DNA of 64,000 nt from assembly GCA_000004695.1 (NCBI GenBank), contig CM000154.2:4640001-4704000 (forward strand), written 5' to 3'. This DNA comes from Dictyostelium discoideum (Eukaryota). Shown here piece by piece: positions 1 through 21,413 of the stretch. The number at the start of each line of letters is the position of its first letter. The first letter of the stretch is position 1. The notes beneath the pieces were generated by a model. It ran no database searches, was not told the DNA's origin, and saw nothing but the letters and a program-made list of their open reading frames with translations. The position numbers and the translations under genes were made by a program.

Positions 1-149
1 AATGAAAAAAGGGTTTAAAATATTGAAAAACTTTCTAAGTTAATTATTATGAATATTTATTTGTTTTTAATTTTAAAAAATTTAAAACTACACAATAAAA
101 ATTTTTATACTAAAATTTCTTTGAAAATAAAAAAAAATTTATTTATTTT

Positions 150-150
150 A

Positions 151-215
<65 letters not shown>
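150..215. repeat. (ATT)n microsatellite
   Basis: Perfect tta/att trinucleotide run seen directly; the ORF track translates it as poly-I. Confidence 0.9.
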
Positions 216-216
<1 letters not shown>

Positions 217-959
217 AGTTTTATTATTTATTTTATAAACAAATTACCTTTGGATGAAAGGAACAACTCAAACAAATTTTTAATTTTTTAGGATATCCTG
301 GGCATGGTTGGCATGGTGTAGCACCCCTTCTTTTTTGGCTGGTGCAATTGCTATTGAGTTTGTGATTACAATATAGTTTGATTGAGTCCATTATAAAATT
401 GAGGTATGTTTAAATATATAAACGAAAATGATATTAATAAATATTAAATAAATAATAAATAAATAAAATAAATATGAAAAGAAAAAAAAAATAATAGATA
501 AATAAAATATGAGTGAATAAAATAATTAAAGTTAAAAAAAAAAAAAATCTATTTAAATACTTAAAATATTTCATTGCAACCGAGTTAATATATTTTTGAT
601 CAAAGATTTTGTTTTTATTTTATTTTATTTTTCTTTTTTTAATTTATTATAATTTGATTTTTTTTTTTTAATTTTCTTTTTATTTGAAAAAAAGGGGAAA
701 TGTTTTACAGTTAAAAAAAAAAAAATTCACTCATTATTTTAACCAACTATAAATAAAATGAAATACAATTGTTCATTTATAAAAACTATGGCCATTATAA
801 TATTAAACCATCACATCTATATTTTTGGTTAAAATCAAATGATCATTTTTTATTTTAAATAAAAAAAACCACTTTTAGTTTATAATAATAAAAACAATTT
901 AAAAAACATAATTAATAAAACCAAAATAATAATATAATTAATTATACATATAATAGTAA

Positions 960-1230
960 TAGAAATAGAAATATTAATATCAATAGTTATAGCAATAGCT
1001 ATATAGTAGTAATGGTAATAGTAATAATAGTAATAATAGTAATAGCAATAGCATTATAGTAGTAATAATAGTAATAATAGTAATAACAGTAATAGCAAGA
1101 GCAATATAGTAATAATAGTAATAATAGTAATAACAGTAATAGCAATAGCAATATAGTAGTAATAATAGTAACAATAGTGATAGCAATAGCAATATAGTAG
1201 TAATAATAGTATTAATAGCAATAATATAAT
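960..1230. repeat. Complex minisatellite built from agtaataatagtaataacagtaatagcaatagcaatat-type units
   Basis: Tandem higher-order repeats of GTAATA/GCAATA units, read directly from the sequence. Confidence 0.8.
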
Positions 1231-1314
1231 GAAACCTAAAAGAATGAATGCTCATTTTCTTCTAGAGGTATTATATTTTATTATTTTACATTGAATATAA
1301 ATATTTGTACTAAA

Positions 1315-1345
<31 letters not shown>

Positions 1346-1479
1346 AATTTTTTTTTTTTAATATTTGTCTTTCTTTCCATCCTTTCCACAATTAACATTA
1401 TAAGGTAATTATATAACTATTTATTAATTTTTTATTTATTTTTTATTACAAAATAAATAATTAAAACTAATAAAGTTTT

Positions 1480-1819
1480 TTATTAGAATTAAGGATATCT
1501 AAAGACGTTGGACCAATTGGAGAGCCGGTTTATGTTACTAATAGCACCAGCATTTCTGAGACCTACATGGGTTTTTCACCATCTGTTTGGATGATTGTTT
1601 GTATAAAATCCGTGATAAAACCAATAATACAGAAGACTTCTTTCAATATGTTAGAGAACTTTTGGAAAGTGGATTTTGCAAGCCTGGTTTATTATTGGTA
1701 ATGGACAATGCTCCAATTCACGGTGGTATCGTGGCTTTAAATGCACTATTTGAATTGTTTAATCAATATTCGGTTCAATTGATATTTCTGAAAAAAAAAG
1801 AAATCAATACCAAAAGGTG

Positions 1820-1830
<11 letters not shown>
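1480..1830 (+). mobile_element. Tc1/mariner-like DNA transposase fragment (truncated)
   Basis: ORF 1587..1820 contains 'LVMDNAPIHGG...VQLIFL', matching the DDE 'DNAPIH ... LPPYSP' signature region of Tc1/mariner transposases. It ends in a poly-A tract and has no N-terminal DNA-binding part. Confidence 0.55.
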
Positions 1831-1851
<21 letters not shown>

Positions 1852-2035
1852 ATCACCCATATGGTATCTGTATTGTTTATGGATTGATTTAAAATTTGTG
1901 GAAAATCTTTGACCTTAAGATTCTATTTTAATTTCCAAAAAAAAAGTAATATCAAATTGAATTTTTAAATGACAAATGATAGTATTTTATTTTTTAATTG
2001 TAAATTATTCTTTTTCAATACAAACTTTAACTAAA

Positions 2036-2110
2036 TAAATCAATTTCATTTAAAGTTTGTAATATTGAACAAAACAAATGGGAATTAAAAAATGAATTTA
2101 ATGTTGATGA
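2036..2110 (+). pseudogene. Fragment homologous to the N-terminal region (FKVCNIEQNKWE...) of the 4529..5722 / 6192..7415 family, in inverted orientation
   Basis: DNA-level similarity to the reverse complement of about 5540-5610; encodes KVCNIEQNKWELKNEFNVDDFLKNE on the + strand. Confidence 0.5.
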
Positions 2111-2214
2111 TTTTTTAAAAAATGAATTATTAAAGTCATATTGACTCTTCATGTGATTTAATAATAAAAAACCAGTCTCTGGCTCATTACCAAAATTTGG
2201 CTTTTTTTTTATCC

Positions 2215-2330
2215 AATATTTTTGAACCAAAATGGTATGAATAAATTGTACTATTATACTGATTTTAACCTTGAATAAATTGGATTGGAGCTGATACAAA
2301 ACCATTTAAATGATAGTTTTATTTTGGTTT
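2215..2330 (-). pseudogene. Fragment homologous to the 3' coding end of the same family (roughly 85% nt identity to 6248-6350)
   Basis: Direct nucleotide comparison: ttttgaaccaaaatggtatgaataaattgtactattata... versus ttttgaaccgaaatgacctgaataaattgtactattata... Confidence 0.55.
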
Positions 2331-2424
2331 GAGATCTTTTTTTATTTTTTTTTTATTTGGTTTGTATTTTAAACTTAATTTTTTTATGATTTTTTTTTTT
2401 TATTTTTTTTTTCTTAATTTTTAA

Positions 2425-3418
2425 GTGATTTTTTTTATTTTATTTTTTTTTTTAATTTTGATGGTGGTTATACATTCTCATATAAAAAATTTCATACCAA
2501 AAAATTTCAAAAATAACTTTTTTTTTTTCAATCAACATAATTACAAAACAATGATATCCAATCAAAATACAATAAATAATATTGATAATAATAAAAAGTG
2601 TACACTTCACCCAAACAAAGATATAGTATTCTTTTGTTTGGATTGTAAATTAATACCATGTTGTATTCAATGTACATCAAGTAAAGGTGAACACCATGGT
2701 CATAGAACTGATACATTAGAATCAACATCAAATATTCTTTCATTAATGAATAATTTTAAAAATGATGTATATCAAAAAGTAGTTGAAAGAATAGAAAATA
2801 ATAAAACAATATTAAAACAATCAAATGATAAATACAATGATATTCAATCACAATTTGATATTAATAATAGTTTATTAAAAAGAGAAATTAGAAAAATTCA
2901 TGATATCATTTCATTCATAGAATTAGATATTAAAAAACAATTAGAAACAACCTATGAAAATAATACATTAATAAATACAATTATAACTTCTTCAACCAAT
3001 AATGATAATGAAATACTTTCAAAAATAATTAATAATAAAAATAAAAATAAAAATGAAAATGAAAATGAAAATGAAAATGAAAATGAAAATGAAAATGAAA
3101 ATAATATTACAATCATTGAAAAATTAAATCAAATTTTAACTATTAATGATCCACAACTTTATGATGTTGGAGATGATTTTGTTATTGATAGAGATACTAT
3201 TAAAATTATTAAACAATATCAACAATCATTAATAGTATTGAATAATAATAATAGTAATATTGATAATTCAAATAAATTAAATGAATACGATAATCAAATC
3301 ATTCATTTCCATTATCAAATAATTGATGATATTAAAAATAAATTAAAATCAATTTATACATTAAATAATTGTACATTTAAAATTGAAATCGATGAAAATA
3401 ATAATAGATTTTTTAAAT
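2425..3418 (+). CDS. B-box zinc-finger protein, exon 1 of a B-box/FNIP-repeat family gene (copy 1)
   Basis: B-box-like Cys/His cluster 'CTLHPNKDIVFFCLDCKLIPCCIQCTSSKGEHHGH'; a (NE)n tract; the exon ends ...FFKCK with a GTAAGC donor at 3419, as in the paralogous copies at 52.8 and 53.9 kb. Confidence 0.6.
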
Positions 3419-3539
3419 GTAAGCTTTAAACAGTTTTTTTTTTATAAATGATATTCACATTACTAACTTTCAAATATAGGGTAATTTAAAGTTTTTTATT
3501 TATAAAAAGGGTGATGTTCTTAAACCCAACGAAATTAAA

Positions 3540-4192
3540 TGAATAGCATTCGAAGACAATTTTAATATTTTATCAAAATTATAAAAAAATCAATTACCAC
3601 CAACTGTAATGCTATTGGATGGATTCAATCAAAAATTAACACCAGGTATATTACCGGATGGTGTTGAATCATTGTATTTGGGTAATATTAAACAAAAATT
3701 AATTATTGGCTCAATTCCTAATACTGTAACTCATGTCTTTTTAAAAGATGGATCAATTGAATATTATCACCAGGTATATTACCAGATGGTGTTGAATCGT
3801 TGTATTTAGGTGATATTAAACATCAATTAATAATTTGTTCAATTCCTAATACTGTAACTTATGTCTCTTTAAAAGATGGATTCAATCAAAAATTAATAAC
3901 AGGTATATTGCCAGATGGTATTGAATGGTTGGGTTTAGGTGACATAAAACAAGAATTAATAATTGGTTCAATTCCTAATACTGTAAAGAGTGTCTCTTTA
4001 AAAGATGGATTCAATCAAATATTATCACCAGGTATATTACCAGATGGTGTTGAATCGTTGGGTTTAGGTGATATAAAACATGAATTAATTATTGGTTCAA
4101 TTCCCAGTACTGTAAAGGAAGTATATGTTTCCAATGGCTTTAAACATCAAATTGAACCTTATTTTTCAGAAAATGTAAACATAATTAAATAG
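3540..4192 (+). pseudogene. FNIP-repeat region (about 8 repeats of LDGFNQKL..GILPDGVESL.LGDIKQELIIGSIPNTV), apparently disrupted
   Basis: FNIP repeat consensus visible. An in-frame TAA (aaattaTAAaaaaatc where the paralogs have GAA) precedes MLLDGFNQ, and a 1-bp deletion near 3780 shifts the frame (ORFs 3609..3809 and 3800..4192 sit in different frames). It cannot be joined in frame to exon 1. Confidence 0.5.
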
Positions 4193-4528
4193 AAAAATAA
4201 TATTTGGTTAAATTAAACAATTTCAATAAAAAAGATAATAAAAACAAAATTATAACTTCACAACTATATAATATTCCTTTTTTTAATAATTTCTTTTTTT
4301 AACCATCATCTGTTGAATAATAAAAAAATAAGCAAACTAAATAATATGTTGGATTTTAAACATTTTAAACTACTATATAAAGAAATAACTGGTGCCACAA
4401 CAAAAACACCAAAAAAAGAGGCAACGTTGAATACAATTTTAGAAAATCAAGAATATTCAAAAAATACATAGGTTAATCGATCTAAAAAAAAAGAAAAAAA
4501 AAAGGTCTAATTAAATTTAATTTTATTT

Positions 4529-5722
4529 TCATAAAAGTTTAGCAATAATAAACCAATCTAATGATGGTATTAATTTTGAATTATTATCTAAAAGTTTTGA
4601 ACCGAAATGACCTGAATAAATTATACTATTATATTCTTGATCTAAATCTTTGAGTAAAACTGGACATGATACAAATCCATTTGGAATTGAATCAGCATTA
4701 ACTCTTGGCCATGGAAAATCCTCTTCTTCCTCAAAAGAATATGATTCTGTATATTCATCATCATTATATTTACCATCATTATCGAATACACAAAAAGTAG
4801 CTAACCAGCCTGTTAAAACATTGCCACCAGATTGTTCTCTATAATCTACTATCTGATTCCACCAAGTTGTATCAGGATTCCCATTTACAGAATCAATGAA
4901 TTTATCAATCACTGGTAATAAATAAACTAACCATTTTTTAATTTCACCATTTTTATTATCGAATTGAATTAATTTTTCAACTCTTTCTTTTAAATTTATC
5001 CAATCATTAATTTCACCTAATAATGTTACTTCTGAAAGGCCACAATATGTTTTAAAAACAAAATTAAAATATTTCTTCATTGTTGACATTAATGCAATTG
5101 AAAATACAACTTTATCAGATTCTGTCGTAGTTGTAAAATCTGGTATAATTAAATCTTTAATTGATGGATCTTTAATATTTGATTGAATTTGATTTGACAT
5201 TTCAATGGTTAATTTATCAAAAGGTGCTTCTAATATTGGATATACTGTCTCAACTATTAATTCTTTTTTACCAGTAAAATCTACAAATTTTTCACGTAAT
5301 TCTTCAGAGTTTTTATTTACGTAGAATGATAGTTGAGTTAATATTGCCATCCAGATATTATCAGGACGTAGTACTAAATGATTGTGATTATTATAACTTT
5401 CCCAAGCAGAGTATACGAAACTATTTGAACCAAAACATGCTAAATCATCATTAATAATACTTGTTTGCAATACTTTAACTCCTATATCAATTCCATTTTT
5501 TAATGATGGATCCATTGTTTTAAAAGATTCAGCATTTAAAAAATCATTAACTTTAAATTTACCATTAATTTCCCATTTATTTTGCTCAATATTACAAACT
5601 TTAAATGAAATTGATTTATTAATTTCATCTCTTTTAATTTTAGAATTGTATTTAATTACTTTTGAATCATTGTTAACAAAACCACTATGACTTCTTACTC
5701 TATAATTAAAAATAGTATTCAT
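4529..5722 (-). CDS. Uncharacterised conserved protein (397 aa), tandem paralog 1
   Basis: Uninterrupted ORF, about 75% identical to 6192..7415 over the C-terminal roughly 300 aa (WESYNNHNHLVLRPDNIWMAILTQLSFY...WWNQIVDY...SLDWFIIAKLL). No recognisable catalytic motif. Confidence 0.7.
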   Translation of the reverse strand: MNTIFNYRVRSHSGFVNNDSKVIKYNSKIKRDEINKSISFKVCNIEQNKWEINGKFKVNDFLNAESFKTMDPSLKNGIDIGVKVLQTSIINDDLACFGSNSFVYSAWESYNNHNHLVLRPDNIWMAILTQLSFYVNKNSEELREKFVDFTGKKELIVETVYPILEAPFDKLTIEMSNQIQSNIKDPSIKDLIIPDFTTTTESDKVVFSIALMSTMKKYFNFVFKTYCGLSEVTLLGEINDWINLKERVEKLIQFDNKNGEIKKWLVYLLPVIDKFIDSVNGNPDTTWWNQIVDYREQSGGNVLTGWLATFCVFDNDGKYNDDEYTESYSFEEEEDFPWPRVNADSIPNGFVSCPVLLKDLDQEYNSIIYSGHFGSKLLDNNSKLIPSLDWFIIAKLL

Positions 5723-5961
5723 TTTTTGAGAATTATTATCATTACCTTTTATAAAAAAAAATAAAATAAAATAAAATATGGTGATTTAAAATCTGTTGAA
5801 AAAAAAAAAAAAAAAAAAATTAATTATTTTATTTTTTTTTTTTAATTCAAACTTGAAAAAAAAATAAGTTTGAAAAAAAAAAAAAAAAAAAAAAATTAAT
5901 TATTTTATTTTTTTTTTTTATTTTTTTTTTAATTCTCAAAACTAAAAATAATTAATTATTT

Positions 5962-6015
<54 letters not shown>

Positions 6016-6191
6016 GTAATGATAGTAATTCCCAAAATAATGGTATTAATTTCAAATTATTATCAATCTATGACATCATTTTATTTTGGCATTTAATTAG
6101 ATAAAACTTTAATAAAAATAGGATTAAATAAGTGTACACTTTAATTTTTTTTTTTATTTTTTAATAAGTTGGAATACTGGGAATTTTCATT

Positions 6192-7415
6192 TTATAAAAG
6201 TTTGGCAATAATAAACCAATCTAATGAAGGTATTAATTTTGAATTATTATCTAAAAGTTTTGAACCGAAATGACCTGAATAAATTGTACTATTATATTGA
6301 ATTTCACCTTGAATTAATTTGATTGGAGCTGATATAAAACCATTTGGAATTGAATCACCATTAACTCTAGGCCATTTATATTTTTTATCTTTATTACTCC
6401 ACCATAATATTAAATTATCATTGTATTTACCATCGATATCGAACACGCAAAAAGTAGCTAACCAACCTGTTAAAATCGATCCACCAGATGATGATTTATA
6501 ATCAACCATCTGATTCCACCAAGTTGTATCAGGATTCCCATTTACAGAATCAATGAATTTATCAATCACTGGTAATAAATAAACTAACCATTTTTTAATT
6601 TCACAATCTTTATTATCGAATTGAATTAATTTTTCAACTCTTTCTTTTAAATTTATCCAATCATTAATTTCACCTAATAATGTTACTTCTGGAAGACCAC
6701 AAGATGACATGCATTGATAATCGAAATATTTCTTCATTGTTGACATTAACGCAATTGAAAATACAACTTTATCAGATTCTGTTGTAGTTGTAAAATCTGG
6801 TATAATTAAATCTTTAATTGATGGATCTTTAATATTTGATTGAATTCGATTTGACATTTCAATTACAACTTCATCAAAAGGTGCTTCTAATATCGGATAA
6901 TCAGTCTCAACTATTAATTCTTTTTTACCAGTAAAATCTACAAATTTTTCACGTAATTCTTCAGAGTTTTTATTTATGTAGAATGATAGTTGAGTTAATA
7001 TTGCCATCCAGATATTATCAGGACGTAATACTAAATGATTATGATTATTATAACTTTCCCAAGCAGAGTATATAAAACTATTTGAACCACAACCAATATT
7101 TATTAAATCATCACCATCACCATCTGTAATACTTGTTTTTAAAACTTTATATTGTTCAGCATCATCACCTGTTTTTTCATTTTCCAAGTTTATAAATTCT
7201 TCAATACAAAATTTATCTTTTATTCCCCATGGACTTTTTTCAACTTCACAAACTTTAAATGTAATTGATTTATTATTTTCATCTCTTTTAATTGTTGAAT
7301 CATATTCAATTAATTTATATTTTGAATTATAAAATTCATTATCTTGATCATTTTCTTTGTTTTCATTATTTTTTTTTAATTTTTTGCTTGAAAACTTGGA
7401 AAATAATTTTTTCAT
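6192..7415 (-). CDS. Uncharacterised conserved protein (407 aa), tandem paralog 2
   Basis: Uninterrupted ORF paralogous to 4529..5722; it starts 250 bp downstream of the halogenase stop on the same strand. Confidence 0.7.
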   Translation of the reverse strand: MKKLFSKFSSKKLKKNNENKENDQDNEFYNSKYKLIEYDSTIKRDENNKSITFKVCEVEKSPWGIKDKFCIEEFINLENEKTGDDAEQYKVLKTSITDGDGDDLINIGCGSNSFIYSAWESYNNHNHLVLRPDNIWMAILTQLSFYINKNSEELREKFVDFTGKKELIVETDYPILEAPFDEVVIEMSNRIQSNIKDPSIKDLIIPDFTTTTESDKVVFSIALMSTMKKYFDYQCMSSCGLPEVTLLGEINDWINLKERVEKLIQFDNKDCEIKKWLVYLLPVIDKFIDSVNGNPDTTWWNQMVDYKSSSGGSILTGWLATFCVFDIDGKYNDNLILWWSNKDKKYKWPRVNGDSIPNGFISAPIKLIQGEIQYNSTIYSGHFGSKLLDNNSKLIPSLDWFIIAKLL

Positions 7416-7477
7416 CTAAAAATTGTTATATTTATAAACATTATAATGTGAAAAAAAAAAAAATAAATAAAAAAAAG

Positions 7478-7517
<40 letters not shown>

Positions 7518-7664
7518 AATCAAAAATTTTCGATGATTGTTTTTTGTGAAAAAAAAGATATTTTTTTTTTTTTATTTTTATTTTTTTATTTATTTTTATT
7601 TTTATTTTTATTTTTTTCTTTTTATTTTTTATTTTTTTATTTTTTTTTATTTTTTTAAAAAAAA

Positions 7665-9476
7665 TTAATACTTCCAATCAACAATATTATTTTGATTATA
7701 GTTATAAGATTTAAAATCTTTTTGAATTTTATCATAATAATCATTATTTGGAGTACCAATCATATTAAAAGAATGTAATTTAGAAAGGAAATAAAATTTA
7801 GAGAATCTATAGGTTGTATTTGATAAAGATTTGAAGAAAGATGAATTCCATAATGCACCAATACCATAGACACGATAATATAGTTTACAAATGATTAGAG
7901 ATAGATAAAAATTGGACCAAGATAAACATTTTGGTAAATTTAATCTTTTATGACCATACTTTGCAAGTGAGAGAGCATGATCATAGTCCCAAGATGAAGT
8001 TGGACTCCAATCACCCAATAATTGACCACCTCTATGATTATCCATGAATCCAATGTTTATAGAGTTTTCATTAGCATAATCCAAAGTTGCCAATAATTGA
8101 TTACGTAATGCTAAACCATTTTCATGATCAGTAGTGAAATGATCCGAGAAAATTGGACAAAGATGATATTTACCAATGTAAGCAGGCAATAATATGGAGA
8201 AATAAGTTGAAGATTCAAAATAAATTCTCCAACTCATAATTGAAGCATTACCTAAATGATTTGAATGATCTTTGATTAAATGATTATTAATTTGTGTTAC
8301 ACATCTAATTAATTTATCGAATGCTTCAACACGTCTATGATAGTCATTGGCAGCATTTGAAAGTTTAAACTTTAACATTTCAGTAAGACACTCGATCTCC
8401 ATAGCAATCATTACCATACCAGTTGAATAGAAAGGATCGAAAATTGCAGCAGCATCACCAATTACACACCAATTATTTTTAGAGAAAAAGGTTTTACTTG
8501 TATGTGCAAGTTTTGGCCAACGATGAAAGTCAACAATTTCACCACTTTTAATTAGATTATAGAGTAGTTTTTGATTCTTTTCAAGGAATGACATGAATTT
8601 ATCCAATGAATTTAATTGAGAAGGTTGAATTTTATCACGATGATATGAAACACCAATACTGTAATCACGAGAGCCTCTTTCCAAGGGGATCATCCAAATC
8701 CAATAGCCTGGACCAAAGAAATGATTGGTATCGTAGGTCCAAGAGCATGTCACATCTTGACTTTTGAAATCGAATAAACTTCTCTCTGTGTTTTTCACTC
8801 TCACCCAAGTGCTTGCATTATCCAGACCAAATAAATGCTTTGGATCCTTTAAAATGTTATCGGTACGAGATCCAACAGTAAAGTTTCTACCACTTGCATC
8901 CACAATATAATCAGTTGTCAATGTTATACGTTCAATTGATTGCTGTAATTTGAAATCGGCACCAGATTCAACTTCACTTAGAATTTCAACATCGATTGAT
9001 TTCATATCATCGTTATCTAAATTATCAACATTTCTAACTCTACCATGGTAGTAGACTGCGCCTTGGGCAATTACCATTTTCAATAGATCACGCTCAATCT
9101 TGCAACGGTTCAATTGAAAAGCTTGGATATCTGGATTCTTTACTGCCCATGTACTATAGTAGTCTTCAATGGTATCAGTCTTTGATAATTCTCTTGGCCA
9201 ATGAAATTGTAATGAAAATTTTGGTGGATGATTCTCTATTAAATAATCTTGTAACTCTAATTCTTTGGCGAAAAACATTGCACTAACTTCAACTGTTGAT
9301 TCTCCAACTTTATAATCTTCATCTAAATTATCTCTTCTCTCTGATCTTGGTTCTATCACTGCAATCCTACCAGATAATTCTGGCATTTTTAATAATAAAT
9401 GTCTAGTTGCTGATAATCCTGCTATACCACCACCAATTATAATAATATCATAATGATTAATAATATTTGTATCCAT
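7665..9476 (-). CDS. chlA: Flavin-dependent halogenase (603 aa)
   Basis: N-terminal FAD dinucleotide fold 'IIIGGGIAGLSATRH'; the halogenase-specific WxWxIP motif as 'GYWIWMIPL'; a C-terminal 'GDAAAIFDPFYSTGM' FAD motif; single exon. The symbol is a hypothesis based on adjacency to a Steely PKS. Confidence 0.75.
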   Translation of the reverse strand: MDTNIINHYDIIIIGGGIAGLSATRHLLLKMPELSGRIAVIEPRSERRDNLDEDYKVGESTVEVSAMFFAKELELQDYLIENHPPKFSLQFHWPRELSKTDTIEDYYSTWAVKNPDIQAFQLNRCKIERDLLKMVIAQGAVYYHGRVRNVDNLDNDDMKSIDVEILSEVESGADFKLQQSIERITLTTDYIVDASGRNFTVGSRTDNILKDPKHLFGLDNASTWVRVKNTERSLFDFKSQDVTCSWTYDTNHFFGPGYWIWMIPLERGSRDYSIGVSYHRDKIQPSQLNSLDKFMSFLEKNQKLLYNLIKSGEIVDFHRWPKLAHTSKTFFSKNNWCVIGDAAAIFDPFYSTGMVMIAMEIECLTEMLKFKLSNAANDYHRRVEAFDKLIRCVTQINNHLIKDHSNHLGNASIMSWRIYFESSTYFSILLPAYIGKYHLCPIFSDHFTTDHENGLALRNQLLATLDYANENSINIGFMDNHRGGQLLGDWSPTSSWDYDHALSLAKYGHKRLNLPKCLSWSNFYLSLIICKLYYRVYGIGALWNSSFFKSLSNTTYRFSKFYFLSKLHSFNMIGTPNNDYYDKIQKDFKSYNYNQNNIVDWKY

Positions 9477-12247: not shown

Positions 12248-14298
12248 ATGAACAACAACAAAAGTATAAACGATTTAAGTGGTAATAGCAACAACAACAT
12301 TGCAAACAGTAATATTAATAATTATAATAATTTAATTAAAAAGGAACCAATTGCAATTATTGGAATTGGTTGCAGATTCCCAGGAAACGTTTCAAATTAT
12401 TCCGATTTTGTTAATATAATTAAAAATGGTAGTGATTGTTTAACTAAAATTCCAGATGATAGATGGAATGCTGATATAATTTCAAGAAAACAATGGAAAT
12501 TAAATAATAGAATTGGCGGTTATTTAAAGAATATCGATCAATTTGATAATCAATTTTTTGGAATCTCACCAAAAGAAGCTCAACATATTGATCCACAACA
12601 AAGATTATTATTACATGTAAAGTATTAATTAATTTTATTTTTTTAAATCTATTTGGAAAGTAAAAAAAAAAAAAAACATATATAGATAAAAATAAATCTT
12701 TAAAATTTATTTTTATCTATATATGTTTTTTTTTTTTTTTTTTTTTTTTTTACTGAAAATTTTTATTTTTTTTTTATTTTTTTTTATTTTTTTTTTTTTT
12801 ACTTTCCAAATTTTTTTATTTTTTTCTAATTTTTTTTTTTTTTTTTTTTTTTTATTATTTCATTTTATTAAATAGCTTGCAATTGAAACATTAGAAGATG
12901 GAAAAATTAGTTTAGATGAAATTAAAGGTAAAAAAGTTGGAGTTTTTATTGGATCATCAAGTGGAGATTATTTGAGAGGATTTGATTCAAGTGAAATTAA
13001 TCAATTCACAACACCAGGAACCAATTCATCATTTTTAAGTAATAGATTATCCTATTTTTTAGATGTTAATGGACCAAGTATGACAGTGAATACAGCATGT
13101 TCAGCATCAATGGTAGCAATTCATTTAGGATTACAATCACTATGGAATGGTGAAAGTGAATTGTCAATGGTTGGTGGAGTGAATATTATTAGCTCACCGC
13201 TACAATCGTTGGATTTCGGTAAAGCAGGTTTACTAAATCAAGAGACCGATGGCAGGTGCTACTCTTTTGATCCACGTGCATCTGGATATGTTAGATCCGA
13301 AGGTGGAGGAATACTACTATTGAAGCCTTTATCCGCTGCCCTCAGAGACAATGATGAAATCTATTCATTACTTTTAAACTCTGCAAACAACTCCAATGGT
13401 AAAACACCAACTGGTATCACCTCACCAAGATCACTATGTCAAGAGAAATTGATTCAACAATTACTAAGAGAATCGTCAGACCAATTTAGTATTGACGATA
13501 TTGGCTATTTCGAATGTCATGGTACAGGCACACAAATGGGTGACCTCAATGAAATCACAGCAATTGGTAAATCGATTGGTATGTTAAAATCTCACGATGA
13601 TCCATTGATCATTGGTAGTGTGAAAGCCTCGATTGGCCATCTTGAGGGTGCAAGTGGTATTTGTGGTGTCATTAAATCAATCATTTGTTTAAAAGAGAAA
13701 ATCTTACCACAACAATGTAAATTCTCTTCTTATAATCCAAAAATACCATTTGAAACTTTAAATTTAAAAGTTTTAACAAAAACCCAACCTTGGAATAATT
13801 CAAAAAGAATTTGTGGTGTAAATTCATTTGGTGTTGGTGGTTCAAATTCAAGTTTATTTTTATCATCATTTGATAAATCAACAACAATAACAGAACCAAC
13901 AACAACAACAACAATTGAATCATTACCATCATCGTCATCATCTTTTGATAATTTATCAGTATCAAGTTCAATATCAACAAATAATGATAATGATAAAGTT
14001 AGCAATATTGTTAACAATAGATATGGCAGTAGTATTGATGTTATTACGTTATCAGTTACATCACCAGATAAAGAAGATTTAAAGATTAGAGCAAATGATG
14101 TTTTAGAATCAATTAAAACTTTAGATGATAATTTTAAAATTAGAGATATTTCAAATTTAACAAATATTAGAACAAGTCATTTTTCAAATAGAGTTGCCAT
14201 CATTGGTGATTCAATCGATTCAATTAAATTAAATTTACAATCATTTATTAAGGGTGAAAATAATAATAATAAATCAATAATATTACCTTTAATTAATA

Positions 14299-14331
<33 letters not shown>

Positions 14332-16012
14332 GTAGTGGTAGTAGTAGTAGTAGTAGTAATAATAATAATATTTGTTTTATATTTTCAGGTCAAGGTCAAC
14401 AATGGAATAAAATGATATTCGATTTATATGAAAATAATAAAACATTTAAAAATGAAATGAATAATTTTAGTAAACAATTTGAAATGATTTCAGGTTGGTC
14501 AATTATTGATAAATTATATAATAGTGGTGGTGGTGGTAATGAAGAATTAATTAATGAAACTTGGTTAGCACAACCATCAATTGTTGCAGTTCAATATTCA
14601 TTAATTAAATTATTTTCAAAAGATATTGGTATTGAAGGTTCAATTGTGTTGGGACATAGTTTAGGTGAATTGATGGCAGCTTATTATTGTGGTATCATTA
14701 ATGATTTCAATGATCTATTGAAATTGTTATATATTAGATCAACACTTCAAAATAAAACCAATGGTAGTGGAAGAATGCATGTTTGTTTATCTTCAAAAGC
14801 AGAGATTGAACAATTGATCTCTCAATTAGGATTCAATGGTAGAATCGTAATTTGTGGTAATAACACCATGAAATCATGTACAATCTCTGGTGATAATGAA
14901 TCAATGAATCAATTCACAAAGTTAATATCATCACAACAGTATGGTTCGGTGGTGCATAAAGAGGTTCGTACAAATTCAGCATTTCATTCTCATCAAATGG
15001 ATATTATCAAAGATGAATTCTTTAAATTGTTTAATCAATACTTTCCAACCAACCAAATCAGTACAAATCAAATCTACGATGGTAAATCATTTTATTCAAC
15101 TTGTTATGGTAAATATTTAACACCGATTGAATGTAAACAATTATTATCATCACCAAATTATTGGTGGAAAAATATCAGAGAATCAGTATTATTCAAAGAA
15201 TCAATTGAACAAATCTTACAAAATCATCAACAATCTTTAACATTTATTGAAATTACTTGTCATCCAATTTTAAATTATTTTTTAAGTCAATTATTAAAAT
15301 CATCAAGTAAATCAAACACATTACTTTTATCAACACTTTCAAAGAATTCAAATTCAATTGATCAATTATTAATATTATGTTCAAAATTATATGTTAATAA
15401 TTTATCATCAATTAAATGGAATTGGTTTTATGATAAACAACAACAACAGCAATCAGAAAGTTTAGTATCATCAAATTTTAAATTACCAGGTAGAAGATGG
15501 AAACTTGAAAAATATTGGATTGAAAATTGTCAAAGACAAATGGATAGAATTAAACCACCAATGTTTATATCATTAGATAGAAAGTTATTCTCTGTTACAC
15601 CATCATTTGAAGTTAGATTAAATCAAGATAGATTTCAATATTTAAATGATCATCAAATTCAAGATATTCCATTGGTACCATTTTCATTCTATATTGAATT
15701 GGTTTATGCTTCAATATTTAATTCAATCTCAACTACCACCACCAACACCACAGCATCAACAATGTTTGAAATTGAAAATTTTACAATTGATAGTTCAATT
15801 ATAATTGATCAAAAGAAATCAACTTTAATTGGTATTAATTTTAATTCTGATTTAACTAAATTTGAAATTGGTAGTATTAATAGCATTGGTAGTGGTAGTA
15901 GTAGTAATAATAATTTTATTGAAAATAAATGGAAAATTCATTCAAATGGTATAATTAAATATGGTACAAATTATTTAAAATCAAATTCAAAATCAAATTC
16001 ATTTAATGAATC

Positions 16013-16047
<35 letters not shown>

Positions 16048-19000
16048 AATGTTTTAAATCATTTAATTCAAATGAATTTTATAATGAAATTATTAAATAT
16101 AATTATAATTACAAGAGTACTTTTCAATGTGTTAAAGAGTTTAAACAATTTGATAAACAAGGTACATTCTATTATTCAGAGATTCAATTCAAAAAGAATG
16201 ATAAACAAGTCATTGATCAATTATTATCAAAACAATTACCAAGTGATTTTAGATGTATTCATCCATGTTTATTAGATGCAGTTTTACAATCTGCTATCAT
16301 ACCAGCAACAAATAAAACTAATTGTAGTTGGATACCAATTAAAATTGGTAAATTATCTGTAAATATACCTTCAAATTCATATTTTAATTTTAAAGATCAA
16401 TTATTATATTGTTTAATTAAACCATCAACATCAACATCAACATCACCATCAACATACTTTTCATCTGATATTCAAGTATTTGATAAAAAGAATAATAATT
16501 TAATTTGTGAATTAACAAATTTAGAATTTAAAGGTATTAATTCATCATCATCATCATCATCATCATCATCTACAATAAATTCAAATGTTGAAGCTAATTA
16601 TGAATCAAAAATTGAAGAAACTAATCATGATGAGGATGAGGATGAAGAATTACCATTAGTTTCAGAATATGTTTGGTGTAAAGAAGAATTAATTAATCAA
16701 TCAATTAAATTTACAGATAATTATCAAACTGTTATTTTCTGTTCAACAAATTTAAATGGTAATGATTTATTAGATAGTATTATAACAAGTGCATTAGAGA
16801 ATGGTCATGATGAGAATAAGATATTCATTGTTTCACCACCACCAGTCGAATCGGATCAATATAATAATCGTATCATTATAAATTATACAAATAATGAATC
16901 TGATTTCGATGCTTTATTCGCAATCATTAATTCAACAACTTCAATCAGTGGAAAGAGTGGTTTATTTTCAACACGTTTTATCATTTTACCAAATTTTAAT
17001 TCAATTACTTTTTCAAGTGGTAATTCAACTCCATTAATAACTAATGTCAATGGTAATGGTAATGGTAAGAGTTGTGGTGGTGGTGGTGGTAGTACAAATA
17101 ACACAATTTCAAATTCATCATCATCAATATCAAGTATTGATAATGGTAATAATGAAGATGAAGAAATGGTATTAAAATCATTTAATGATTCAAATTTATC
17201 ATTATTCCATTTACAAAAATCAATTATTAAAAATAATATTAAAGGTAGATTATTTTTAATTACAAATGGTGGTCAATCAATTTCAAGCTCAACTCCAACC
17301 TCAACATATAATGATCAATCATATGTTAATCTATCACAATATCAATTAATTGGTCAAATTAGAGTATTTTCAAATGAATATCCAATTATGGAATGTTCAA
17401 TGATTGATATTCAAGATTCAACTAGAATTGATTTAATTACTGATCAATTAAATTCAACAAAGTTATCAAAACTTGAAATTGCATTTAGAGATAATATTGG
17501 TTATAGTTATAAATTATTAAAACCATCAATTTTTGATAATTCTTCATTGCCATCATCATCATCAGAAATAGAAACAACAGCAACAACAAAAGATGAAGAA
17601 AAAAATAATTCAATAAATTATAATAATAATTATTATAGAGTTGAATTATCTGATAATGGTATAATTTCAGATTTAAAGATTAAACAATTTAGACAAATGA
17701 AATGTGGTGTTGGTCAAGTTTTAGTTAGAGTTGAAATGTGTACTTTAAATTTTAGAGATATTCTTAAATCATTAGGTCGTGATTATGATCCAATTCATTT
17801 AAATTCAATGGGTGATGAATTCTCTGGTAAAGTCATTGAAATTGGTGAAGGTGTTAATAATTTATCAGTTGGTCAATATGTTTTTGGTATAAATATGTCA
17901 AAATCAATGGGTAGTTTTGTTTGTTGTAATTCTGATTTAGTATTTCCAATTCCAATTCCAACTCCATCATCATCATCATCATCAAATGAAAATATTGATG
18001 ATCAAGAAATTATTTCAAAATTATTAAATCAATATTGTACAATACCAATTGTATTTTTAACATCATGGTATAGTATTGTAATTCAAGGTAGATTAAAAAA
18101 AGGTGAGAAAATTTTAATACATTCAGGATGTGGTGGTGTTGGTTTAGCAACTATTCAAATTTCAATGATGATTGGTGCTGAAATTCATGTTACAGTTGGT
18201 TCAAATGAAAAGAAACAATATTTAATCAAAGAGTTTGGCATTGATGAGAAGAGAATCTATTCATCAAGATCATTGCAATTCTATAATGATTTAATGGTGA
18301 ATACTGATGGTCAAGGTGTTGATATGGTTTTAAATTCATTGTCTGGTGAATATTTAGAGAAATCAATTCAATGTTTATCCCAGTATGGTAGATTCATTGA
18401 AATTGGTAAAAAAGATATTTACTCGAATTCAAGTATTCATTTAGAACCATTTAAAAATAATTTATCATTTTTCGCAGTTGATATTGCACAAATGACAGAA
18501 AATCGTAGAGATTATCTAAGAGAGATAATGATCGATCAGCTATTACCATGTTTTAAAAATGGTTCTTTGAAACCATTGAATCAACATTGTTTCAATTCAC
18601 CTTGTGATCTTGTTAAAGCCATTAGATTCATGTCATCCGGTAATCATATTGGTAAAATCTTAATCAATTGGTCCAATTTAAATAATGATAAACAATTCAT
18701 TAATCATCATTCAGTTGTTCATTTACCAATTCAATCATTTTCTAATAGATCAACTTATATTTTCACTGGTTTTGGTGGTTTAACTCAAACATTATTAAAA
18801 TATTTTTCAACAGAATCTGATTTAACAAATGTTATAATAGTTAGTAAAAATGGTTTAGATGATAATAGTGGTAGTGGTAGTGGTAATAATGAAAAATTAA
18901 AATTAATTAATCAATTAAAAGAATCTGGTTTAAATGTATTGGTTGAAAAATGTGATTTGTCATCAATTAAACAAGTTTATAAATTATTTAACAAGATTTT

Positions 19001-21413
19001 TGATAATGATGCTAGTGGTAGTGATAGTGGTGATTTTAGTGATATTAAAGGTATTTTCCATTTTGCATCATTGATTAATGATAAAAGAATTTTAAAACAT
19101 AATTTAGAATCATTTAATTATGTTTATAATAGTAAGGCTACTAGTGCTTGGAATTTACATCAAGTTTCATTAAAATATAATTTAAATTTGGATCATTTCC
19201 AAACTATTGGTTCAGTCATTACAATTCTTGGTAATATTGGTCAAAGCAATTACACTTGTGCAAATAGATTCGTTGAAGGTTTAACTCATTTACGTATTGG
19301 TATGGGTTTGAAATCAAGTTGTATTCATTTAGCTTCTATACCTGATGTTGGTATGGCTTCAAATGATAATGTTTTAAATGATTTAAATTCAATGGGTTTT
19401 GTGCCATTCCAATCACTCAATGAAATGAATTTAGGTTTTAAGAAATTATTATCATCACCAAATCCAATCGTTGTACTTGGTGAAATTAATGTTGATAGAT
19501 TCATTGAAGCAACTCCAAACTTTAGAGCAAAAGATAATTTCATTATTACTTCATTATTTAATCGTATTGATCCTTTACTATTAGTAAATGAAAGTCAAGA
19601 TTTTATTATTAATAATAATATTAATAATAATGGTGGTGGCGGCGATGGTAGTTTTGATGATTTAAATCAATTAGAAGATGAAGGACAACAAGGATTTGGT
19701 AATGGTGATGGTTATGTTGATGATAATATTGATAGTGTTTCAATGCTATCTGGAACATCATCTATTTTTGATAATGATTTCTATACTAAATCAATTAGAG
19801 GTATGCTTTGTGATATTTTAGAATTAAAAGATAAAGATTTAAATAATACAGTATCATTTAGTGACTATGGTTTAGATTCATTACTATCAAGTGAATTATC
19901 AAACACAATTCAAAAGAATTTCAGTATATTAATTCCAAGTTTAACTTTAGTTGATAATTCAACCATTAATTCAACTGTTGAATTAATTAAAAATAAATTA
20001 AAGAATTCAACAACTTCTTCAATTTCTTCAAGTGTATCTAAAAAAGTTTCATTTAAAAAAAATACTCAACCATTAATTATACCAACAACAGCACCAATAT
20101 CAATAATTAAAACACAAAGTTATATCAAATCTGAAATTATTGAATCATTACCAATTAGTAGTAGTACAACTATTAAACCATTGGTATTTGATAATTTAGT
20201 TTATAGTAGTAGTAGTAGTAATAATAGTAATTCTAAAAATGAATTAACATCACCACCACCAAGTGCAAAGAGAGAATCAGTTTTACCAATAATATCAGAA
20301 GATAATAATAGTGATAACGATTCGTCAATGGCAACAGTAATTTATGAAATTTCACCAATTGCTGCACCATATCATAGATATCAAACTGATGTATTAAAAG
20401 AGATTACACAATTAACACCACATAAAGAGTTTATTGATAATATTTATAAGAAATCAAAGATTAGATCAAGATATTGTTTCAATGATTTCTCTGAGAAATC
20501 AATGGCTGATATTAATAAATTGGATGCAGGTGAAAGAGTTGCACTCTTTAGAGAACAAACTTATCAAACAGTTATCAATGCAGGTAAAACAGTGATAGAG
20601 AGAGCTGGTATTGATCCAATGTTAATTAGTCATGTCGTTGGTGTCACTAGTACTGGTATTATGGCACCCTCTTTCGATGTGGTACTCATTGATAAATTGG
20701 GTCTATCAATTAATACTAGTAGAACTATGATCAATTTCATGGGTTGTGGTGCCGCTGTCAATTCAATGAGAGCTGCCACTGCTTATGCTAAATTAAAACC
20801 TGGTACTTTTGTATTGGTGGTTGCAGTGGAGGCATCGGCAACCTGTATGAAATTCAATTTCGATAGTCGTAGTGATCTATTATCACAAGCTATCTTTACC
20901 GATGGTTGTGTAGCTACGTTGGTAACTTGTCAACCAAAATCATCATTAGTTGGTAAATTGGAAATCATCGATGACTTGTCCTATTTAATGCCAGATTCAA
21001 GAGACGCTTTAAATCTATTCATTGGTCCAACTGGTATTGATTTAGATTTACGTCCTGAATTACCAATTGCAATCAATAGACATATCAATAGTGCTATTAC
21101 AAGTTGGTTGAAAAAGAATTCACTTCAAAAGAGTGATATCGAATTCTTTGCTACTCATCCTGGTGGTGCTAAAATCATTTCTGCCGTTCATGAAGGGTTA
21201 GGTTTATCACCAGAAGATCTATCAGATTCTTATGAAGTTATGAAAAGATATGGTAATATGATAGGTGTTTCAACTTATTATGTTTTACGTAGAATTTTAG
21301 ATAAAAATCAAACATTACTTCAAGAAGGTTCTTTAGGTTATAATTATGGTATGGCTATGGCCTTTTCACCTGGTGCTTCAATTGAAGCAATTTTATTTAA
21401 ATTAATTAAATAA
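12248..21413 (+). CDS. stlB: Steely-type hybrid polyketide synthase (type I KS-AT-DH-ER-KR-ACP fused to a C-terminal type III PKS). Exons 12248..12616 and 12876..21413 give 2968 codons.
   Basis: KS: TACSASMV (active-site Cys), ECHGTGT, GSVKASIGHLEGASG. AT: GHSLGE. ER: IHSGCGGVGLATIQ. KR Rossmann: FTGFGGLTQ. ACP: DYGLDSLLSSEL. Type III PKS: MGCGAAVNSMR (Cys), FFATHPGGAKII (His), GNMIGVST (Asn). The intron donor cat|gtaaag (12617) and acceptor aatag| (12875) restore the KS motif RLLLH|LAIETLEDG. The symbol stlB rather than stlA is inferred from the computed length (2968 codons, which I recall as the length of Steely2) and from halogenase adjacency. Confidence 0.8.

Follow-up and report, generated by a model that had tools for sequence, protein, structure and literature searches.

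The tgr genes are an example of a tandem gene family in Dictyostelium that evolves by birth and death. Here, we analyzed a 64,000-nucleotide stretch of Dictyostelium discoideum DNA (assembly GCA_000004695.1, contig CM000154.2, positions 4,640,001 to 4,704,000 of the forward strand; hereafter, the window) with regard to two paralogous genes, DDB_G0290821 (pA) and DDB_G0290823 (pB), which lie downstream of chlA, the gene for the flavin-dependent halogenase of DIF-1 synthesis. The polyketide synthase (PKS) gene stlB and chlA are adjacent and have a promoter region in common (PMC9489281). Their expression is biphasic: it peaks early, at the time of DIF-1 production, falls, and later rises strongly in the stalk (PMC9489281). 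StlB and ChlA also make CDF-1, a late chlorinated dibenzofuran, by a pathway described as unresolved; no homologue of a Friedel-Crafts hydrolase was found, and StlB is cleaved late in development by a protease that was not named (all PMC9489281).

The first-pass annotation of the window recognised no motif in the two proteins and proposed that the genes are either accessory to the halogenase/PKS locus or members of an expanding family unrelated to it. We found that both are full-length members of the DUF4419 family, and it is the second proposal that the data favour. We consider it moderately probable that the genes are part of a tandem array found only in the D. discoideum species complex, and that its adjacency to chlA is positional and without functional link to DIF-1/chlorinated-polyketide synthesis.

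Two DUF4419 genes downstream of chlA

The limits first assigned to both open reading frames (ORFs) were exact (Table 1). pB and pA start 249 bp and 1943 bp, respectively, past the chlA stop (7665) on a common strand, in line with the 250 bp and approximately 1.9 kb reported initially. BLASTP aligned the two proteins with 74% identity over 389 aa, which agrees with the earlier figure of about 75% and extends its span of about 300 aa. At the DNA level, identity was 83% over 1162 bp, and homology was nearly confined to the coding sequence. In a Pfam search, PF14388 (DUF4419) matched pA with an E-value of 1.7e-103 and pB with one of 1.7e-101; both matches ran over profile positions 1-303 of 303, i.e., the full-length domain, and the scores of 346.7 and 340.1 bits were well above the gathering threshold of 25 bits. 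NCBIfam models yielded no match to the family. A homolog search returned DDB_G0290823 as 100% identical to pB, while pA corresponded to the 397-aa cluster named DDB_G0290821, for which the listed identity of 74% relates to the pB query. Both genes are already annotated in D. discoideum AX4 as 'DUF4419 domain-containing protein'. A third full-length paralog, DDB_G0290805, is located outside the window, and at least three further DUF4419 genes are present elsewhere in AX4. Positions 1-5992 of the window are 99.85% identical, over 6 kb, to a second D. discoideum assembly, GCA_054883475.1 (L092, 9735-15718), and therefore the pA region and the relics described below are common to both assemblies.

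The residues that characterize the family are retained in both proteins. Across 297 members, His125 (98%), Arg155 (93%), Thr210 (99%), Cys239 (99%) and Asp252 (100%; pB numbering) were near-invariant. A set of 11 residues, i.e., His125, Trp136, Phe208, Thr210, Cys239, Gly248, Asp252, Trp300, Gly317, Trp318 and Gly381, was kept in 98-100% of these members, including pB, and was invariant in a separate alignment containing pA and pB. No near-invariant residue is missing in pB, and the only deviation in pA is the replacement of Pro242 by Ser, a variant found in 20 other members. Compared with PF14388, to which they align over the full profile with the family His, Arg, Thr-Thr, Cys-Gly, Asp-Trp and Gly-Trp positions kept, pA and pB show no difference in the domain; they carry a short low-complexity N-terminal extension, as do other dictyostelid copies.

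Many bacterial members possess a lipoprotein-type or hydrophobic N-terminus (an export-like N-terminus was found in approximately 45% of them by a crude scan), whereas pA and pB have no export signal. Since neither protein has a hydrophobic N-terminus, pA and pB are predicted to be cytosolic; such an N-terminus is likewise missing from 73 of the 76 mostly eukaryotic proteins from the homolog search. A PTS1 or another targeting signal was also considered, by reading the sequence by eye, and was rejected, since the C-terminus (...AKLL) is non-canonical as a PTS1. Each of the two genes probably has its own promoter. Within the AT-rich DNA of the window, the spacer between chlA and pB contains AATAAA motifs within an A-rich stretch, a long run of T and a TATAAAT element about 25 bp ahead of the pB ATG, and because of these features pB would be driven by a compact promoter of its own.

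Distribution of the family and synteny with chlA

In the GCA_054883475.1 assembly, the order of genes is stlB, chlA, pB, pA, a FNIP gene, a B-box gene, a DNase_II-like gene, a TIG gene (2454 aa), a broken DUF4419 copy, DDB_G0290805 and a ComC-like gene, beyond which follow a 367-aa gene, Vma12, a carbohydrate kinase and an FHA gene. The DUF4419 copies of D. discoideum are thereby arranged in two sub-clusters approximately 17 kb apart. In D. citrinum, chlA is 95.7% identical and is followed by five same-strand DUF4419 copies, two intact and three broken, and then by the ComC-like/Vma12/kinase block. In one D. citrinum gene model of 1182 aa (L002, 12906-17062), the ComC-like TIG/EGF gene is joined with a broken DUF4419 copy, and this model is probably an annotation artefact.

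D. firmibasis carries chlA and a single DUF4419 gene, co-oriented and 23.3 kb apart, with six gene models in the sequenced part of the gap. A DUF4419 N-terminal relic (L005, 16835-16953) is found approximately 5 kb downstream of its chlA, with 76% amino acid identity to residues 32-60 of pB and 82% DNA identity to the N-terminal relic of the window, and this suggests that intact copies may once have lain near D. firmibasis chlA. D. dimigraforme harbors four DUF4419 copies, including the pB ortholog (L001), which is flanked by DNase_II genes; the ComC-like side is conserved there, and chlA was not found within 10 kb of any of the four copies. Similarly, no DUF4419 gene was present in the 10 kb downstream of D. 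purpureum chlA, and tblastn detected none within 10 kb of stlB-chlA in Polysphondylium violaceum and Heterostelium album (L090, 1-11803; L091, 1-11896). Both of the latter species retain the divergent stlB-chlA pair, with unrelated genes (WD40, TOR1L1, polyubiquitin) downstream of chlA; the genes in this position differ completely among D. discoideum, P. violaceum and H. album.

A DUF4419 gene directly after chlA was thus observed only in D. discoideum and D. citrinum, and the conserved co-localisation with the StlB/ChlA core genes by which accessory genes of a cluster may be recognised was not found. The ComC-like/Vma12/Carb_kinase flank, on the other hand, is shared by D. discoideum with D. 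citrinum, D. firmibasis and D. dimigraforme. Since the pair is kept in P. violaceum and H. album next to unrelated downstream genes, the deeply conserved unit is stlB-chlA, and the stable neighbour of the array is its other flank. As regards chlA itself, its orthologs in dictyostelids are 60-96% identical; Tieghemostelium lacteum contains three ChlA-like halogenases, two of them with the adjacent tags DLAC_07521 and DLAC_07522. The closest relatives of ChlA outside the dictyostelids are cyanobacterial halogenases (38-43% identity over almost the entire length), and this would accord with an ancient horizontal origin.

The family extends far beyond this locus. When 1.84 billion representative proteins were searched with a profile, 9,150 DUF4419 clusters (50% identity) were retrieved at E <= 0.001, and 4,180 passed E <= 1e-30. 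Eukaryotic members occur in dictyostelids, Naegleria, Acrasis and many fungi, and a related-locus search built from four distant members retrieved 369 bacterial loci from at least eight phyla, with hosts in Bacteroidota, Planctomycetota, Myxococcota, Gemmatimonadota, Armatimonadota, Verrucomicrobiota, Acidobacteriota and Obscuribacterales. Viral members come from giant viruses, entomopoxviruses and LbFV, a wasp virus. The occurrence of DUF4419 in an insect assembly (Bradysia odoriphaga), in entomopoxviruses, in ORF1 of LbFV and in many giant viruses (BFVD) points to horizontal transfer or contamination. Probable gene-model artefacts aside, the only domain fusion seen was P0074, a bacterial metagenome protein of 708 aa combining an N-terminal transmembrane segment, a SusC/RagA-type Plug fragment and DUF4419. 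The literature searched contained two passing mentions of DUF4419, no mention of the DDB gene ids and no functional data, and the ids of pA and pB were absent from the supplements of one transcriptomics study.

In order to describe the genomic context of the family, genes within 6 kb of 80 bacterial DUF4419 loci were collected, and the 723 neighbouring ORFs were clustered all-against-all. A chlA-like or PKS match was found at none of the 80 loci. The most recurrent neighbour, Peptidase_C25, was present at six of them, all from related rumen Bacteroidales, and none of the Pfam families in 53 likely operon partners (same strand, <200 bp) appeared three times or more. Two fungal loci were likewise devoid of PKS and halogenase genes, their neighbours being P450, Zn-cluster, HET and glycosyltransferase genes. 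Recurrence beside a PKS or halogenase in other genomes was therefore not observed, and this, together with the unconserved synteny, disfavours the accessory role proposed in the first-pass annotation. That annotation had expected an unrelated family to be widespread and never linked to the halogenase; the wide spread was borne out, and the lack of linkage holds largely, save for the adjacency in D. citrinum and the 23-kb distance in D. firmibasis.

Divergence and decay within the array

Non-synonymous (dN) and synonymous (dS) substitution rates were estimated by the Nei-Gojobori method, and a neighbour-joining tree was built with 100 bootstraps. Within D. discoideum, pA and pB differed with a dN of 0.178 and a dS of 0.261 (dN/dS 0.68), pA and DDB_G0290805 with 0.119 and 0.202 (0.59), and pB and DDB_G0290805 with 0.173 and 0.209 (0.83). 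Between species, DUF4419 copies showed dS values of 0.40-0.53 and dN/dS ratios of 0.32-0.55. The corresponding values for chlA of D. discoideum and D. citrinum were a dN of 0.021 and a dS of 0.453 (dN/dS 0.046), so that ratios of 0.32-0.83 for the DUF4419 copies stand against 0.046-0.056 for chlA. Since dS within the species (0.20-0.26) is about half of that between species, these data indicate either a duplication after speciation or a homogenisation by gene conversion.

Divergence between pA and pB is mosaic. Synonymous divergence is approximately zero in codons 241-280 and low in codons 100-180, but amounts to 0.3-0.4 at either end. Purifying selection acts on the domain core, with non-synonymous values (pN) of 0.01-0.1, well under the synonymous ones (pS), whereas evolution is nearly neutral in the N-terminal 80 residues and in residues 280-360. 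In the tree, all copies of this chromosomal interval formed one clade (100/100 bootstraps). pB grouped with a D. cf. discoideum copy and with ACTA71_000187 of D. dimigraforme, the gene beside DNase_II, in 100/100 bootstraps, and pA fell in the DDB_G0290805 lineage with the same support. In agreement with this topology, the 3' 900 bp of pA are 91% identical to the distal copies versus 83% to pB. A simple recent tandem duplication giving rise to pA from pB was considered and ruled out, since the two were sisters in 0/100 bootstraps.

The relics of the window record further copies. The N-terminal relic, with the translation LNKSISFKVCNIEQNKWELKNEFNVDDFLKNELLKS, is 67% identical to residues 34-69 of pA at the protein level and 85% at the DNA level (102 bp, E 9e-27); its DNA is 96% identical to the 5' end of DDB_G0290805, versus 85% to pA and 78% to pB. 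The C-terminal relic shows 60% amino acid identity to residues 358-405 of pB and is interrupted by three in-frame stops, which marks it as a pseudogene fragment; its DNA is 86% identical to the 3' end of pB, while identity is 81% with the pB ortholog of D. dimigraforme and 75% with pA. Because the N-terminal piece is nearest to DDB_G0290805 and the C-terminal piece nearest to pB, the two relics are the remains of two copies from two lineages. They had initially been placed at 2036..2110 (+) and 2215..2330 (-) and ascribed to a single third copy; their existence and strands were correct, while the coordinates have been revised and the common source has been replaced by two. The adjacent transposase remnant noted at the same time does match DDE_3, although weakly and below the Pfam cut-off. 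The early impression of local duplication and decay fits the intact copies, broken copies and relics of the array. Given that D. citrinum holds two intact and three broken copies, that the relics of the window stem from two lineages and that pA and pB are never sisters, the local DUF4419 copies evolve by birth and death.

Table 1. Features of the window in and around the DUF4419 genes downstream of chlA
Feature	Position	Strand	Description
DDE_3-like (Tc1/IS630-type) transposase remnant, weak	1587..1820	(+)	Pfam DDE_3 E 0.003, below cut-off
DUF4419 N-terminus relic	2031..2138	(+), inverted relative to the array	Residues ~34-69; tblastn E 1.6e-9
DUF4419 C-terminus relic	2157..2306	(-), array orientation	Residues ~358-405; tblastn E 5e-11 to pB
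B-box zinc-finger and FNIP-repeat ORFs	2425..4192	(+)	Pfam zf-B_box 1.3e-7, FNIP 4.4e-26; between pA and relics
pA (DDB_G0290821)	4529..5722	(-)	Intact intronless DUF4419 ORF, 397 aa
pB (DDB_G0290823)	6192..7415	(-)	Intact intronless DUF4419 ORF, 407 aa
chlA-pB intergenic region	7416..7664	(-)	Sequence read directly
chlA, flavin-dependent halogenase of DIF-1 synthesis	7665..9476	(-)	603 aa; Pfam Trp_halogenase; outside DUF4419
StlB polyketide synthase ORF	12972..21413	(+)	Large ORF

With regard to the neighbouring features, the B-box/FNIP stretch is called as two genes in GCA_054883475.1. The FNIP-repeat ORFs (3609-4192) contain internal direct repeats with an offset of approximately 129 bp and about 87% identity, and the repeats are divided between two ORFs that overlap (3609..3809 and 3800..4192), pointing to a frameshift or small intron; these ORFs and the B-box ORF (2425..3429) may constitute one gene. 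The ORF at 1587-1820, which includes the motif DNAPIH, is the terminal exon of an 896-aa DNase_II gene model in GCA_054883475.1, a model that may be chimeric.

Explanations for the array and comparison with described systems

Since neither a conserved synteny with chlA nor an association with halogenase or PKS genes elsewhere was found, we read the adjacency of the array to chlA as positional. The array would occupy the chromosome-5 interval between chlA and the ComC-like/Vma12/carbohydrate-kinase block and would change there through duplication, gene conversion or relocation, and decay, and the placement of pA and pB beside chlA would follow from the location of the array and not from a role in the pathway. 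Some observations weigh against this. In two species, DUF4419 copies follow chlA immediately and on the same strand. Because the gap between chlA and pB is so short, both genes may share chromatin or regulation. In addition, the adjacency appears to predate D. discoideum itself, as the relic kept by D. firmibasis lies 5 kb downstream of chlA. The same proximity, with co-orientation immediately downstream of chlA in D. discoideum and D. citrinum, would speak for pA and pB as lineage-specific accessory genes of StlB/ChlA, acting in CDF-1 formation, in cleavage of the aryl-ketone acyl chain, in release of the StlB chalcone-synthase domain or in self-protection. The gaps described above for the CDF-1 pathway, the Friedel-Crafts hydrolase and the StlB-cleaving protease (PMC9489281) would leave room for such a role, and a hydrolase would be in keeping with the near-invariant Cys, His and Asp. 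We nevertheless regard this role as quite improbable, given that D. purpureum, P. violaceum and H. album lack the adjacency, although the latter two keep stlB-chlA, and that it is broken in D. firmibasis and was not seen in D. dimigraforme. Late chlorinated compounds are made by other slime moulds too (PMC9489281), and the chemistry is therefore broader than the chlA-DUF4419 linkage. Furthermore, no association with a biosynthetic cluster was found at the 82 other DUF4419 loci, dN/dS amounts to tenfold the chlA value, and there is turnover of copies between sister species. For these reasons of synteny, family-wide context and evolutionary rates, a recruitment of the D. discoideum-complex copies beside chlA to chlorinated-polyketide metabolism, as a CDF-1 hydrolase or coupling helper or as the protease releasing StlB, is very improbable; if true, it would provide the first biochemical function for an orphan family of approximately 9,000 clusters with an unsolved fold.

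High dN/dS values, the variable N-terminal and 280-360 segments, and copy-number turnover between close species could also reflect a conflict-driven family facing bacteria, viruses or other amoebae, with a binding or effector-like function instead of that of a metabolic enzyme. Its recurrence in viruses (giant viruses, entomopoxviruses, LbFV), suggestive of horizontal transfer, and the export-like N-terminus of many bacterial members would be in line with such a role, to which we assign a minor chance. None of the PADLOC defence models matched the family, the 'apoptosis inhibitor' label of the entomopoxvirus proteins is annotation only, without experimental basis in the literature checked, and polar residues strongly conserved across all kingdoms fit conserved chemistry better than pure binding. 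The dN/dS of 0.68 between pA and pB, and the broken copies and relics nearby, which show that decay is common in the array, might instead mean that one or both genes are functionless duplicates becoming pseudogenes. This is very improbable, as neither ORF is truncated and each covers the entire profile, the near-invariant residues are kept apart from the Ser of pA, which other members share, pN in the core windows is well under pS, and homologs 73-91% identical to pB are annotated in other genomes of the D. discoideum complex. For the DIF-1 locus, the positional reading removes two tempting candidates and leaves the downstream genes as lineage-specific passengers beside the divergent stlB-chlA pair. 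The interest attaches to the DUF4419 family and not to the chlA locus: being large and present in bacteria, amoebae, fungi and large DNA viruses, it is as a whole a worthwhile structural and biochemical target.

Three types of described systems can be compared with pA and pB. Because His, Cys and Asp are near-invariant, we tentatively propose a soluble enzyme in which Cys239, His125 and Asp252, with Arg155 and Thr210/211, may form a thiol-based active site; Cys239 adjoins a low-confidence loop in the predicted structure model. Near-invariant Cys, His and Asp in some 300 diverse members are shared with the Cys-His-Asp thiol enzymes (papain-like, NlpC/P60, transglutaminase-like, arylamine N-acetyltransferase). 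The difference is that PDB chains yielded no meaningful match in sequence or profile searches and that no fold likeness was found to any solved structure, and hence none to a known thiol-enzyme superfamily. Like accessory genes of biosynthetic clusters, pA and pB adjoin, and are co-oriented with, a halogenase gene sharing its promoter region with its PKS gene; unlike them, their co-location is not conserved, and DUF4419 is not recurrent in clusters and has no known tailoring, resistance or transport role. Tgr-type families differ in that pA and pB are single-domain, probably cytosolic proteins without a known recognition role, but the likeness to the array is broad, and comprises species-specific copy number, intact beside broken copies, a mosaic similarity suggesting gene conversion, and elevated dN/dS.

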